This document shows, piece after piece, positions 1,331-8,785 of a DNA stretch of 64,000 nt; within the stretch, counting starts at the first letter, position 1, and each line of letters opens with the position of its first letter. The notes under the pieces were generated by a model. The model saw only the letters and a program-made list of their open reading frames with translations. It searched no databases and was not told where the DNA came from. Position numbers and translations under genes: made by a program. Source of the DNA: a virus (taxonomy: Duplodnaviria > Heunggongvirae > Uroviricota > Caudoviricetes). Where the stretch lies: IMG/VR virus record IMGVR_UViG_2925939204_000001; one strand, given 5' to 3'.

Positions 1331-2516
1331 TTTCCTGAAAAACCAGGACGGGCGCTATATCACTGACGGCCTGTCCTCTAAGGACTTCACGCGTTTATTC
1401 GAGCTTATCAGGAAAGAACAAACCCGTAAGCGCCGACAAGCTCACCGGACGCTGACGCCAGGTAGACTGAGGAACAAATCCGCCGAAGATATTCTCAAGT
1501 TAGGGAAGAAAAAAGGCGGCACGTTCTTCACGCGAGACGACCTGAAAGGTTTCGAAAAGCTACGGAGTAAAACGCGCGAAAAATATGACAGCAAGACGGC
1601 TGGCATCACATACGCCCAGCTGGTGGCATCCAGCCAGGCAATCGATATTAAGCGTGCAAATAACGCCGTGGATGACGGATCTGGTATCAAAAGAGCTACA
1701 CCCGTATCTCTTCGCCACAACGTGATTAATATCCGCGTAGAAGCATCGGATATATCCGTCCACCAGCACCATATCGTCCGGATACGCTTTGAAGAATGGG
1801 ATCAGATGGTCGATAACATCGCAGAAGACGATAAATCAGCTCTGAAAATCACTAAATCACTGTGCGCCGGGCGGGTGTCTTTCGATTGTGACTGTGGTCG
1901 TCATCAATACTGGTATCGTTACATCGCTACTGCGGGTAACTTTGCCCTGGCCCCGCCAAAAGAATACGCCTATCCAAAAGTTCGCAACCCGAAGCTGCAA
2001 GGCGTCGCCTGTAAACACGTGATCCACTCAATGACGCGGTTACAGTCCGCCAGTTGGCAAATGAGTATTGCTCGTGCGCTACAAAAGGCTGCAACGCAAA
2101 TTGCATTTGGTGACGATCGCCGCCGTACAACCAAACACTTCTCAAAAGAAGACGAGAAGGAGTTTAATCGCAATCGTAGCAGTAAAACGAACGTTGAAGC
2201 CGCCAAACGCGAATGGAGGCTCTATCAGAAGCGCCAGGCAGCTTTAAGTACAAAACTGGCAAAGGACAACGGCAAGATCGACAAACTACGTGACCAATTG
2301 ACCAAGGCCAGAAAGTTGTCAGATGCACAGAAAAAACGGGCGGCAGCAAAAGAAGCGGCCTTGCAACGTGAGAAACAGAAAAACAAGGAGCTTCAGCAAC
2401 GCCTTGCCGATCAGTTCGCACTGAAGAAGCAGGCGTTCATTGATGCGCTTGTCATGGCTGGAACACCACCAGCACAAGCTGAAAAAATGTTCATGGAGTA
2501 TGTAAAAAAAGCATAA
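1323..2516 (+). CDS. hypothetical protein with CxC...CxH zinc-finger-like motif and basic coiled-coil C-terminus (397 aa)
   Basis: FDCDCGRHQYWYRY...CKHVIH resembles a SWIM-type zinc finger; C-terminal K/R/Q-rich coiled coil. Confidence 0.55.
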   Translation: MPDFLKNQDGRYITDGLSSKDFTRLFELIRKEQTRKRRQAHRTLTPGRLRNKSAEDILKLGKKKGGTFFTRDDLKGFEKLRSKTREKYDSKTAGITYAQLVASSQAIDIKRANNAVDDGSGIKRATPVSLRHNVINIRVEASDISVHQHHIVRIRFEEWDQMVDNIAEDDKSALKITKSLCAGRVSFDCDCGRHQYWYRYIATAGNFALAPPKEYAYPKVRNPKLQGVACKHVIHSMTRLQSASWQMSIARALQKAATQIAFGDDRRRTTKHFSKEDEKEFNRNRSSKTNVEAAKREWRLYQKRQAALSTKLAKDNGKIDKLRDQLTKARKLSDAQKKRAAAKEAALQREKQKNKELQQRLADQFALKKQAFIDALVMAGTPPAQAEKMFMEYVKKA

Positions 2517-2523
2517 ACCACAC

Positions 2524-2560
2524 ATAGCCTAGCTGCCTAGGCTAGGCTTTCATCTTTTTG
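2524..2560 (+). terminator. stem-loop (AGCCTAG/CTAGGCT) followed by T-rich tract
   Basis: Inverted repeat 2526-2543 then ...TTTCATCTTTTTG after stop at 2516. Confidence 0.5.
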
Positions 2561-3278
2561 AAAAATCAATTTCCGTTTTATCAAATAAATTTGAAATATC
2601 AGCAACCAATTTATTAAAATCATGATCGCCATTATAAAGCGAAGTCTTCTTTATTGCCATTACAAAATCATATAACTTTTCTGGGGAGTCAATACCAACC
2701 CCTCTACTTTTAAAAAGCTCAATGATAACTCCAACATCATCATATAATAACTTTATTGCCGCCATAATCTCTTTTTGCTGCCTAAGCAATCTCTCAAGTT
2801 CATTTTTATTTTCATCCATAATTCTTTTGTTGAATTGTGTATCATTAATACTTTTTATTATTTCAGCCTCTTTTATTTGCAACGCCTTTCTTTTATTTTG
2901 ATCCATGTCAGCATCCAAATACCTTATCTCTGTGTATATTTTACTTGTTAGCTTTGATACGCAAAGAGTGACAATCGGAGCTGCAATTGATGCAATAATT
3001 CCAAAAATAAATGGCAAGAAAAAATGATAAAACCAAGGAGACAAAACGCCTTCATAAACTAGAGGAATCTTACCTCCAACAAATGTTACAGATAAAGTAT
3101 ATAGGATATCATCCTTTGACTTCATCAATATTAGTATATCTTTCCAATTAATAATTAGAAAAGAAATTAATATATATGCAAACACTTTATTAAAAAGCTT
3201 GTCTTTTATGGCATCTCCAAAAGATACTTTGATTAGATCATTTTCAGTCAATTTTTCTGTTGATGAATCTGTATTCAT
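2550..3278 (-). CDS. AT-rich two-TM membrane protein with long helical cytoplasmic domain (242 aa); candidate exclusion/abortive-infection effector
   Basis: Two hydrophobic segments (VFAYILISFLIINW, WFYHFFLPFIFGIIASIAAPIVTLCV); gene visibly far more AT-rich than flanking DNA. Confidence 0.6.
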   Translation of the reverse strand: MNTDSSTEKLTENDLIKVSFGDAIKDKLFNKVFAYILISFLIINWKDILILMKSKDDILYTLSVTFVGGKIPLVYEGVLSPWFYHFFLPFIFGIIASIAAPIVTLCVSKLTSKIYTEIRYLDADMDQNKRKALQIKEAEIIKSINDTQFNKRIMDENKNELERLLRQQKEIMAAIKLLYDDVGVIIELFKSRGVGIDSPEKLYDFVMAIKKTSLYNGDHDFNKLVADISNLFDKTEIDFSKR

Positions 3279-3340
3279 ATAAACTACCGTGATTTCTAAT
3301 ATCTATTTTATGAAAATAGCTGTCATCCAGACCGCCAAAC

Positions 3341-3700
3341 TCAAATACCAACCAAGCTTTCAAGAGGAATGCCAAACTGGGAATGTAAACGGCGAATCAT
3401 AGGTAACGTCAAATTTCGTGTCCCATTTAGCACTTCGTAAACACGATTTGACTTACCAATCGCCGGCTCCAGATCCTTCACGGTCAGCCCTTGCTGTTCC
3501 ATACGGAATTTAATGGCCTCAATAGGTGATGGTGGCTCAATTGGGTAATGTTTTTTCTCGTACTCCTCAATGAGAAGACTCATAACCTCAAAGAAATCAC
3601 CTTCCGGAGTATTCATTTCCGGTTCGTTATCGAACATCGGTTCGACCGCACGCAGTGCGGCCTCATAATCTTGTTCTGTACGGATAGGTTTAATGTTCAT
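3341..3700 (-). CDS. HigA-family (E. coli K-12 type) HTH antitoxin-like regulator (119 aa)
   Basis: N-terminal EQDYEAALRAVE...LIEEYE plus C-terminal HTH LTVKDLEPAIGKSNRVYEVLNGTRNLTLPMIRRLHSQFGIP typical of K-12 HigA-type antitoxins; no cognate toxin adjacent. Confidence 0.65.
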   Translation of the reverse strand: MNIKPIRTEQDYEAALRAVEPMFDNEPEMNTPEGDFFEVMSLLIEEYEKKHYPIEPPSPIEAIKFRMEQQGLTVKDLEPAIGKSNRVYEVLNGTRNLTLPMIRRLHSQFGIPLESLVGI

Positions 3701-3712
3701 TAATTACAAAGG

Positions 3713-3741
3713 AAAGCCCACTTGCTAAGTGGGCTTTTTGT
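3713..3741. terminator. stem-loop AAAGCCCACT-TGCTA-AGTGGGCTTT with flanking T/A tracts (possibly bidirectional)
   Basis: Perfect 10-bp inverted repeat followed by TTTTTG on plus strand; lies between higA and the second HTH gene. Confidence 0.45.
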
Positions 3742-3756
3742 ATGTGTTTTACTATA

Positions 3757-4095
3757 TCAGGCTGCTTTTTTATTCAGGTTCCGCTGAGAAATAAATTTTT
3801 CAGCAGTATTGATACGACTTAACTCTTCCTGGACGCGCATATCATTTTCGACTTCCCACAGATCTACTGCGGTCTGAAGATTAATCCAAAAATCTACAGA
3901 AGTATCGAATGCTTTTGCCAGGCGATATGCCATATCCATCGTTAGCTTACGATTGTTATTAACAAGAGCGCTTACGGTGTTACGATGAACATGAAGTATT
4001 TCTGCTAACTCGTTGATCTTCAGCTCTAACGGCTCCAGGTATTCGTACAGCAGGATATCACCTACGGTCGTCGGTTTTCTGGTTGCCTGTTTCAT
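3757..4095 (-). CDS. higA: HigA antitoxin (XRE-type HTH, VapI-like)
   Basis: GDILLYEYLEPLELKINELAEILHVHRNTVSALVNNNRKLTMDMAYRLAKAF...FWINLQ matches VapI/HigA antidote HTH pattern; immediately downstream of higB. Confidence 0.8.
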   Translation of the reverse strand: MKQATRKPTTVGDILLYEYLEPLELKINELAEILHVHRNTVSALVNNNRKLTMDMAYRLAKAFDTSVDFWINLQTAVDLWEVENDMRVQEELSRINTAEKFISQRNLNKKAA

Positions 4096-4165
4096 TTTTT
4101 GCCCTTACTAGCGTGCGTATTAAGTGGACTCTGGTCAGAACCCGGTCCGTAACCGGGTATCTGTT

Positions 4166-4468
4166 TTAGTATTTGTGAGGGTCGAGATACAAGTCCTCGG
4201 CCTTTCCGTTAACCCACTTAAAAATTAACCTATATTGCTTATTCACCCTTACTGATGAATAGCCATTTAGCTTCCCTGACAGTTCCTCATACCGATTACC
4301 TGGTGGTGATCTTAAATCCTTACAGGTAGTTGCGGCATTGATAATGTCCAACTTCCGTGACAATGTCATATGAATATCAGGAGGTATCTTTCTATGTGGT
4401 GTTGAAAATTCAAAAAAATCATCAAGCCACGCATCCCTGAAATCCTTTATGTTAATTTTTTTGGTCAT
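4166..4468 (-). CDS. higB: HigB toxin (RelE/ParE superfamily killer protein)
   Basis: C-terminal YSSVRVNKQYRLIFKWVNGKAEDLYLDPHKY typical of HigB-type mRNA interferases; toxin-first gene order. Confidence 0.8.
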   Translation of the reverse strand: MTKKINIKDFRDAWLDDFFEFSTPHRKIPPDIHMTLSRKLDIINAATTCKDLRSPPGNRYEELSGKLNGYSSVRVNKQYRLIFKWVNGKAEDLYLDPHKY

Positions 4469-4567
4469 TAGTCATTTGATCCTCCGTGATGATTACCGAA
4501 TGCCATAACTATAGCGCACCGTTGCACTGTGCGCAAGTGCATTTTATGAATTCCCCCTCCTTCATCC

Positions 4568-4589
4568 AAAATCACAATCTCCCGAAAAT
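4568..4589 (+). promoter_or_regulatory. late-promoter-like element AAAATCACA-N7-GAAAAT
   Basis: One of about eight intergenic copies of AAATCACA followed 7 nt later by a -10-like hexamer; upstream of 4619 operon. Confidence 0.35.
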
Positions 4590-4618
4590 CTTCCTTTCGA
4601 TACCTGACAGATCGACCT

Positions 4619-5422
4619 TTGAGGATGCTTATGGGCCGTTTTGACGAATGGTTTGCTGACGATGCAAACCTGGCAAGTAAGGAGTCAGAACATGACAGCA
4701 CGCAGAGAGAAACGCCAGCGCCGATTGAAGCGAATGCAGGAGGCGCGCCGGAACATGGCAATACCGGTTCGGATTCATTCAGCATTCTGGAAGAGCAACC
4801 CGCCGCCAAAGCTGATAGCCATGATAATTTTGCTGATAGCAACGGTGGCCTTACTCCGGATGCTGGCGAATCAGATATAGCCATACTTCCATCTTCCCTG
4901 GCTGGCAGAGAACCGACTCCACAGTTAAAAGCACGCTATAACGGGCATAAAGCCTTTAACGACCAAATCCGCGCAGACTGGATGCTGATTATTGAATCCA
5001 GCCCAGACGCGTTTCAGGCTCTCTTATATCGACCAGATGTTGGCACATATGGGGTAGTCAGCGACGAAACAGGAGAAGAGTCATTCACTGAACTGGATAA
5101 CAACCAACGCGAACTGACTTACCAGGAACCTGAAATCGTTTATGTGCTGGATAACCCTGACGGGCGTGACTCTTTCCATGCGATTGACGCAGACGGTGAG
5201 CAGGATGGCTTAACCGATGATGTTCTGATTCTGCGTATTGCAGCAAATAACGTCCCCGTCGGCTCAATTCTTGAATGGAATGAAGAGATGGTAAACGGCG
5301 TAGCGCGCCGCTGGTGGTACGTGCACCGTATTTTTAGCTACGGCACACAGCATGTTGGTTCGCTTTACTACTGCATACCTGCCAGGAATTTTGATACGAC
5401 TCAAAACGGAGTGATCGAATGA
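4619..5422 (+). CDS. acidic protein, probable virion/baseplate-module component (267 aa)
   Basis: GAGGA SD before ATG; D/E-rich N-terminus; first gene of a four-gene overlapping plus-strand operon. Confidence 0.5.
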   Translation: MRMLMGRFDEWFADDANLASKESEHDSTQRETPAPIEANAGGAPEHGNTGSDSFSILEEQPAAKADSHDNFADSNGGLTPDAGESDIAILPSSLAGREPTPQLKARYNGHKAFNDQIRADWMLIIESSPDAFQALLYRPDVGTYGVVSDETGEESFTELDNNQRELTYQEPEIVYVLDNPDGRDSFHAIDADGEQDGLTDDVLILRIAANNVPVGSILEWNEEMVNGVARRWWYVHRIFSYGTQHVGSLYYCIPARNFDTTQNGVIE

Positions 5423-7879: not shown

Positions 7880-8785
7880 ATGAGATCAGTCGCTTTCAAA
7901 AATATCTTCATCTATCGTCTTTCACGCGAAGTTAGCTGGGATACTGCAGAAGTAAATGCAGCCCTTAGCAAGTTTGTGTTTACCCCATGCGGTTCTCAGG
8001 ATATGGCTAAAGCTGGTTGGACCTCCGTTCTTGGTGACAACCTCACCCATGAATACCAGGGTTTTCTTCTGATACAGCATAAACGAGAGGAAAAAATCCT
8101 ACCTTCTCAAGTGCTCAAAGAAGAGTTACAGAAAAAAATCCTGACACTTGAAGAAGAGCAAGACAGAAAGCTGAAGAAGACCGAAAAAGATTCGCTGAAG
8201 GATGAAGTGCTTCACTCTCTTCTTCCTCGTGCTTTCACGAGAAAATCACTCGCCAAAATCCTGATCGACCGCAGCAACCATCTGGTATTCGTTGAGGCAA
8301 GCAGCGCCAAAAAGGCAGAGGACCAGCTGGCTTTATTGCGAAAATCGCTCGGCAGCCTGCCTGTCATTCCATTCACACCACGCGAACCGCTGGAAATTAC
8401 AATGACCGAGTGGTTTAAAAACGGCTTCCCTGCCGGATTTACAGCAGGTGAAGACGCCACATTAAAGGGTCTGCTCGATAATGGTGGTGCCGTTCGCTGC
8501 AACAAAGTTGATCTACAGTCCGACGAGATTATGTCTCACATTGAGGCGGGGAAAGTAGCTACGACCGTTGCAATTAACTGGATGGACCGCGCGTCGTTCA
8601 GAGTCAACGATGATATGAGTATCAAAGCCCTGACATTCTGTGATGATCTCTATGACCAGAACGACGATATCGACCGGGAGGATGTAGCACAACGATTTGA
8701 TGCTGATTTCGTGCTCTTTACGGGCGAATTATCTGCACTGTTTAACGCGCTGGTGGAGGCCATTGGCGGTGAAGCAGAACGTTAA
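7880..8785 (+). CDS. rdgC: recombination-associated protein RdgC
   Basis: Near-colinear match to E. coli RdgC ([51 protein letters not shown]-terminal [16 protein letters not shown]...GGEA). Confidence 0.9.

Follow-up and report, generated by a model that had tools for sequence, protein, structure and literature searches.

Do an antitoxin-like gene and the membrane-protein gene lying directly downstream of it form one system, or are they neighbours of separate origin? The question is raised by the IMG/VR virus record IMGVR_UViG_2925939204_000001, a stretch of 64,000 nucleotides that was analysed over its full length and is called the window below. The window is a P1-type phage-plasmid resembling phage D6, its first 8 kb being 99.3% identical to Escherichia phage D6. 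The membrane-protein gene, referred to here as mem, encodes 242 amino acids (aa) at positions 2550-3278 of the minus strand. The gene upstream of it, at positions 3341-3700 of the same strand, encodes a 119-aa protein with a helix-turn-helix (HTH) domain, and will be called the HTH gene or orphan higA. An initial annotation of this DNA, which had both open reading frames (ORFs) right, took the pair for a two-gene module, with the HTH protein as regulator or antitoxin and the membrane protein as effector. Comparison of the locus with those of its relatives, designated by L-numbers (L001, L002, L005 and so on), led us to a different explanation, which we put forward with middling confidence as a whole: the two genes would be unrelated neighbours, one an orphaned higA and the other an autonomous conflict gene.

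Origin of the 119-aa HTH gene

The 119-aa protein consists of an N-terminal domain followed by a C-terminal HTH_3 domain at residues 63-115. Its residues 6-112 align with E. coli K-12 HigA (PDB 5ifg/5ycl, expect value E ~8e-8), in an alignment that spans the N-terminal domain as well as the C-terminal HTH, and its initial assignment to the K-12 HigA type is thereby upheld. It also matches positions 1-119 of the 402-position PADLOC profile PD-Lambda-2_B (E 4e-43). Sister D6-like elements, retrieved via relatives of the mem protein, have in the same slot a 100-aa HigB of the PF09907 family, then the 119-aa protein, then a mem homologue (L005-L007, L013-L015, L017). The sister copies of the 119-aa HigA are 97-98% identical to that of the window, and their HigB matches PADLOC PD-Lambda-2_A (E 1e-41). 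There the HigA gene starts 4 nt after its own PF09907 higB, and in having this toxin directly upstream at 4-nt spacing the sister elements resemble E. coli K-12 HigB-HigA (YgjN-YgjM). The window differs from the K-12 system in that the antitoxin gene stands without toxin gene, promoter or palindromic sites. The lack of a cognate HigB beside the HTH gene, already noted in the initial annotation, extends to the whole window, where tblastn with the PF09907 HigB of L005 found none (best E 0.99). In length, K-12 HigA has 138 aa against 119 for the window protein, which shares 32% identity with the HigA of L011, likewise 138 aa long.

The HigB that the window does encode is a 100-aa toxin of the Rts1/Proteus type (4166-4468, minus strand; PF05015, E 4.4e-35; phrog_3066), and it has no PADLOC match. 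It is followed on the same strand by a 112-aa Rts1/Proteus-type HigA antitoxin with an N-terminal HTH (3757-4095; TIGR02607, E 7.9e-30; HTH_3; phrog_1381). With a PF05015 toxin preceding a TIGR02607 antitoxin, the pair at 3757-4468 fits Rts1-type HigBA and shares the toxin-first order of the Rts1/Proteus vulgaris HigB-HigA.

When aligned to the window, L005 and L013 delimit the segment by which the two arrangements differ. Sequence identity is found beside the homologue of P1 gene 7, gives way to divergence, and resumes exactly from the ATG of the 119-aa gene. The replaced segment (minus strand) runs from 3701 to 4568, the left junction at ~4568 being approximate. In the window this interval is occupied by the Rts1-type higBA together with its terminator and upstream region; in L005 and L013 it holds the PF09907 higB only, with two palindromes upstream. 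At the ATG, GGAGTAAATCATG of L005 is replaced by TTTGTAATTAATG in the window. The L005 sequence GGAGTAAATCATG provides a Shine-Dalgarno within the end of higB, along with the 4-nt spacing. The GGGCTTTCCTTTGTAATTAATG found before the ATG in the window is the tail of a perfect-stem, terminator-like hairpin (3711-3739), which closes the incoming higBA cassette at its 3' side and ends ~10 nt before the orphan higA ATG. Inspection of the upstream sequences, TTTGTAATTA-ATG and CACGGTAGTTTAT-ATG, agreed with the initial remark that neither the HTH gene nor mem has a good Shine-Dalgarno. For the HTH gene, the lack follows from the right replacement junction sitting exactly at its ATG. A single cause thus accounts for the absence of both the toxin partner and the ribosome-binding site: the toxin half of the resident toxin-antitoxin (TA) pair was replaced by another TA cassette.

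The two palindromes upstream of the PF09907 higB of L005 (L005:5200-5243) are copies of TCCCA-N3-TGGGA lying 16 nt apart, and are probably the HigA operator of the PF09907 subfamily. No exact copy exists in the window, where two one-mismatch sites occur at chance level, neither of them upstream of the HTH gene or mem; the terminator hairpin stands upstream of orphan higA instead. No TCCCA-N3-TGGGA inverted repeat precedes mem in L005.

From these comparisons the 119-aa gene is very probably the antitoxin half of a K-12-type (PD-lambda-2A/B-like) higBA. An Rts1-type higBA cassette bringing its own terminator replaced the toxin gene, promoter and operator of this resident pair, and left orphan higA just past the incoming terminator, deprived of its Shine-Dalgarno and decaying in sister plasmids. 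The Rts1/Proteus vulgaris-type pair is the cassette that displaced the original higB, and is separate from the HTH gene and mem.

The decay is seen in the plasmids that match the island in PLSDB. These number 116, of which 85 fall within the 80-90% identity band, and a variant with ~86% coverage and 89-90% identity makes up most of the matches listed. In this variant (pKY1497_2, for example, locus L002), the HTH gene is identical to that of the window for its first ~60 codons, then diverges and reaches a stop at 66 aa, ending before the HTH motif. The mem gene of L002 is an intact 242-aa allele with 57% protein identity to that of the window and an AGGA ribosome-binding site of its own. Since an intact mem follows the 66-aa HTH gene, we concluded that mem is kept without a functional HTH protein. 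Further damaged versions of the HTH gene encode 86 aa, or two fragments of 75 and 48 aa.

A second case was found in Citrobacter-type P1-like phage-plasmids, where a 68-aa ORF lies between a TacA/GNAT-toxin pair and mem (L008:5710-5916; also L009, L010, L038 and L050). This ORF is a remnant of a 138-aa K-12-type HigA (54% identity, E 2e-27); it is degraded at both ends and preceded by the terminator of the TacA/GNAT cassette. Because TacA/GNAT loci carry a HigA remnant too, replacement of a TA cassette has stranded higA at least two independent times. We considered whether selection retains the N-terminal HigA remnants of 66 and 68 aa, and rejected the idea because the L008 remnant is also degraded at its 5' end, with a GTG start after the terminator. 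What looked like a system made of an orphan HTH protein and a membrane effector is therefore a scar of TA cassette turnover. The higBA parts are ordinary, and the replacement scar is a neat instance of such turnover, if an unsurprising one.

Allele exchange and genomic contexts of mem

In the D6-type slot (L005, L006, L013 and the window), HigB and HigA are 97-100% identical where the adjoining mem proteins are only 38-48% identical, so that the supposed co-evolution of the HTH protein with mem is contradicted. A 60-nt DNA identity profile gave 90-100% in higA and in gene 25, against 30-75% within the mem ORF, and the transitions coincide with the ends of this ORF. The same pattern was found on a second backbone, present in Citrobacter, Pseudocitrobacter and metagenomic contigs, where the slot is a different one, between structural genes of 164 and 187 aa. 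Here the flanking proteins are 80-91% identical and HigB and HigA 99-100% (L011 versus L051), with mem at 34%. All mem loci are AT-rich, their G+C content (GC) ranging from 0.28 to 0.41. Polymorphic codons within one mem allele type were 14 synonymous and 14 non-synonymous, a rough count made without a formal test, which suggests that mem is a coding gene under moderate constraint.

We found copies of mem in 71 of 5,426 complete E. coli genomes, all 71 of them on plasmids, and the allele of the window in 3. Among the matches listed, these plasmids measure ~60 to 216 kb and mostly ~90 kb. A tblastn search of 50,697 phage records returned D6 as the only one with a member of the mem family. In two loci mem is split by a frameshift or stop (L018:5001-5731, giving 147+83 aa, and L050:4001-4691, giving 187+58 aa), and as it is split there, it must be dispensable for carriage of the element.

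Within the window, mem belongs to a 2.1-kb minus-strand island of four genes (4166-4468, 3757-4095, 3341-3700 and 2550-3278), on which the ORF list and the D6 annotation agree. The island, described from the outset as lying between plus-strand virion operons, is preceded by plus-strand tail genes homologous to P1 mat, 26 and 25 and followed by homologues of P1 genes 7, 24, 6 and 5. In P1 itself, 3 nt separate the end of gene 25 from the start of gene 7, and since these genes abut in P1, the island is an insert, interrupting the late tail operon. The GC is 0.292 for mem, 0.444 for the 119-aa gene, 0.422 for higA and 0.383 for higB, with 0.49-0.50 for the gene 25 and gene 7 homologues and 0.475 for the whole window. 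Both the striking AT-richness of mem and the status of the island as acquired cargo, claimed from the start, are borne out by the GC comparison and by the insertion relative to P1.

The TA cassettes found upstream of mem in phage-plasmids are of several kinds: PF09907 HigBA in three diverged versions (L005 type, L019 and L011/L051), PF05015 HigBA plus orphan higA (the window and D6), a ParE/RelE-type toxin with an HTH protein (L012), and TacA with a GNAT toxin (L008-L010, L038 and L050). In one D6-like viral contig an extra 159-aa ORF without Pfam match (L016:5832-6311) lies between mem and the gene 25 homologue.

Outside phage-plasmids, members of the mem family have neither a TA nor an HTH gene as neighbour. 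In Klebsiella P2-like prophages, the genes for gpV and gpS enclose a solitary 216-aa mem relative that runs on the opposite strand. Their interval corresponds to the P2 orf30 position, a documented site of horizontally acquired genes (PMC3091744, PMC6823313), at which a 741-bp hypothetical ORF was reported in phage R18C (PMC6823313). The same Klebsiella slot also contains a 247-aa gene without Pfam match, on the late-gene strand (L040:5001-6576; also L041-L044). Other relatives of mem follow UmuC or a C39-peptidase ABC exporter, or adjoin a P2 gpD homologue; one, in Pantoea, belongs to an islet that neighbours an integrase and an insertion sequence element, and another lies near DUF1294, where the opposite strand carries HicAB. 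On one strand of a viral contig of 5.8 kb (L034:1744-5451), a 218-aa mem relative comes after genes for an AAA_21/AAA_15 ATPase (603 aa) and a C-5 cytosine methylase (Dcm, 349 aa), an arrangement that looks like a defence-island context. Two scans of genome contigs and a viral scan yielded no further contexts for the distant mem groups. Every context examined is a phage-plasmid, a prophage or an island-like cargo region, and mem sits in slots where mobile elements hold accessory and defence-type genes.

From the exchange pattern and these contexts, mem is in all likelihood both autonomous and hypervariable. It is an accessory ('moron') gene whose alleles are exchanged as a cassette with ends at the ends of the ORF.

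The mem protein and its possible function

Kyte-Doolittle analysis of the mem protein with a 19-residue window gave two peaks, centred at residues 41-43 (1.9) and 91-103 (2.3), which correspond to hydrophobic segments at about residues 32-52 and 81-107. An AlphaFold2 model built from 22 sequences (pLDDT 74.4, pTM 0.33) shows short helices as far as residue 66, a single continuous helix from 81 to 193, and helices at 199-211 and 219-234 that make up a C-terminal helical domain. The two N-terminal membrane segments and the long helical part attributed to this protein by the initial annotation are thus recovered.

The protein corresponds over its full length to phrog_8191 (residues 1-242 on profile positions 1-242, E 4.7e-114), a family with no assigned function, and matches phrog_13369 and phrog_4780 weakly. 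An exhaustive profile search of 1.84 billion representatives returned 53 cluster representatives of the family at E <= 0.001, and 24 at E <= 1e-10; a word-indexed search gave just 10 relatives. In an alignment of 20 sequences, N44, P89, G93 and P101 are invariant and Y35, S39, W45, S54 and Y189 nearly so, and conservation in the family is concentrated N-terminally. In Pfam the protein matched TniB alone, below the cutoff (E 0.054); NCBIfam gave no family, and PADLOC 2023 no model at E <= 1. A Pfam scan of 37 diverse family members found coiled-coil families only, each in 1-2 members, and comparison of the mem profile with PDB sequences yielded coiled-coil noise only (best E 0.026). The matches of one mem homologue to LmuB, JetC and similar PADLOC models fall in the coiled-coil region and were discounted as compositional. 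Against Pfam, PADLOC, PDB and BFVD, neither a sequence nor a fold relationship was detected. The structure and PADLOC checks that had been suggested for mem thus returned no fold match to the model and no PADLOC model, in keeping with the initial annotation, which could name no known family for mem.

On this evidence the mem protein combines a conserved N-terminal membrane module of two segments with a long, fast-diverging helix and a small C-terminal domain. In the lysogen it is probably an inner-membrane protein that forms oligomers by way of the long helix, a location and an oligomeric state that we infer; the cytoplasmic position given to the helix in the initial annotation is putative. 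We propose that mem takes part in conflict between mobile elements, the variable part setting specificity and the conserved membrane module acting on the membrane. A function in superinfection exclusion or abortive infection (Abi) is suggested tentatively, as a possibility somewhat short of probable. Exchange of alleles as seen here is common in conflict genes, and makes mem a reasonable candidate for a new single-gene membrane exclusion or Abi family. Uncharacterised accessory genes of this sort are numerous. If mem does prove to act in this way, P1-like and P2-like elements, frequent in clinical Enterobacterales, would gain a new single-gene membrane family among their defences.

P22/lambda SieB, T4 Imm and lambda RexB are small inner-membrane exclusion or Abi proteins, for which temperate elements carry AT-rich accessory genes. 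The mem gene occupies the same kind of slots, for example the P2 orf30 region; its protein showed no sequence or fold relationship to any Pfam, PADLOC, PDB or BFVD entry. To our knowledge, none of the three has a helix of ~110 residues followed by a C-terminal domain, as mem has.

Several points weigh against reading mem as an autonomous conflict gene. In phage-plasmids it invariably comes right behind the 3' end of a same-strand type II TA cassette, which full autonomy leaves unexplained. Low identity in a coiled-coil-like region can come from relaxed constraint, and not necessarily from diversifying selection. PADLOC 2023 holds no model for the family.

Instead of acting in phage defence, mem could be a factor of lysogenic conversion or maintenance, for instance in envelope modification, conjugation or entry exclusion, or host fitness. 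Such a role fits the placement of mem in the same kind of accessory slots, its expression from the strand opposite to the late genes, and the absence of any match of mem to a defence model. We nevertheless consider it rather unlikely: deeply diverged alleles between near-identical flanks are more typical of conflict genes, and the relative found behind the AAA_21/AAA_15 ATPase and C-5 methylase has defence-like surroundings.

We also weighed a three-part system resembling PD-lambda-2, in which the upstream type II TA would be the sensor or regulator and mem the accessory or effector, the incoming Rts1-type higBA having taken over the TA role. PD-lambda-2 consists of three genes, with A HigB-like, B joining a HigA-like HTH to a peptidase, and C required for defence (PMC9519451, Vassallo et al. 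2022). The likeness lies in the three genes in a row, in the matches of the HTH protein and the sister HigB to the B and A profiles, and in the placement of mem, directly 3' of a same-strand TA in two backbones and slots of P1-like phage-plasmids and behind five kinds of cassette; that the third gene of PD-lambda-2 is needed for defence (PMC9519451) would suit an effector role for mem. The differences are that the window has no A component, that its HTH protein lacks the peptidase domain (119 versus 402 profile positions), and that mem is unmatched by PD-Lambda-2_C. Moreover, identical TA pairs adjoin mem alleles that are 34-48% identical, which argues against co-adaptation; mem persists after loss of higB and during decay of higA, and is solitary in P2-like prophages and other islands. 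Hairpins between higA and mem in three diverged versions speak in the same direction. In the window, the 62 bp that separate the HTH stop from the start of mem (3279-3340) contain a degenerate hairpin (3313-3336, GGCGGTC..GACAGC, one mismatch), of which the sister loci have an intact stem followed by TTTT. This spacer also has a weak promoter-like site (-35 ATGACA at 3326-3321, -10 GATATT at 3303-3298), with 9 matches out of 12, a score not above the chance count: the promoter scan gave 9 sites where 6.6 were expected by chance, and the site upstream of mem is a hint only. Taken together, we regard a three-part system as unlikely.

More generally, mem could be the partner of whichever type II TA cassette adjoins it upstream, be it one of the two kinds of HigBA, ParE/RelE with an HTH protein, or TacAT. 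It might then couple toxin release to a membrane event, or sense infection through its variable part. This would account for the invariable order, TA then mem, in two unrelated slots of P1-like phage-plasmids; we judge it improbable all the same.

The two-gene module of the initial annotation, with the HTH protein as a dedicated antitoxin or repressor of mem in a TA or Abi pair, is essentially excluded by comparison of the loci. The two genes are indeed neighbours on one strand, with 62 bp between them, and both lack a strong ribosome-binding site. However, the HTH protein pairs with its own PF09907 HigB in sister elements, and mem alleles are exchanged independently of the HTH gene. Conserved co-occurrence fails as well: the HTH gene is cut to 66 aa, with loss of its motif, in the variant behind most plasmid matches, and is truncated or absent beside intact mem, and distant mem relatives have no HTH neighbour. 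Finally, no operator-like palindrome precedes mem. As for mem being part of the lytic machinery of the element itself (of holin, spanin or morphogenesis type), its position among tail genes is all that favours such a role, which is hardly credible given that P1 has no gene at this position, that mem runs opposite to the late operon with strongly deviant GC and variable alleles, that some copies are frameshifted (L018, L050), and that D6 is the sole carrier among the phage records.

Other features of the window

The island is flanked on the left by the homologue of P1 gene 25, a tail protein gene on the plus strand (1323-2516). Its stop and that of mem, at 2550, are convergent, and a bidirectional terminator-like hairpin lies between them (2525-2548). 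On the right, the homologue of P1 gene 7, also encoding a tail protein, occupies 4631-5422 of the plus strand. A scan of positions 2000-5000 with Rfam gave nothing close to the gathering thresholds, and no match to the P1 C1 operator was found in the window with up to 3 mismatches allowed.

Directly upstream of higB, a 138-aa minus-strand ORF (4468-4884) overlaps the start of the gene 7 homologue and has no counterpart in the D6 annotation. It is probably spurious. Its 3' part spans the likely higBA promoter region. Farther along, at 7880-8785 and beyond, the D6 annotation and L001 indicate an RdgC-like gene, similar to P1 hrdC, and two DNA methyltransferase genes. D6 additionally has a glutaminyl-tRNA synthetase gene there. 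All these genes, just past the tail genes, are further accessory cargo unrelated to mem and the HTH gene.

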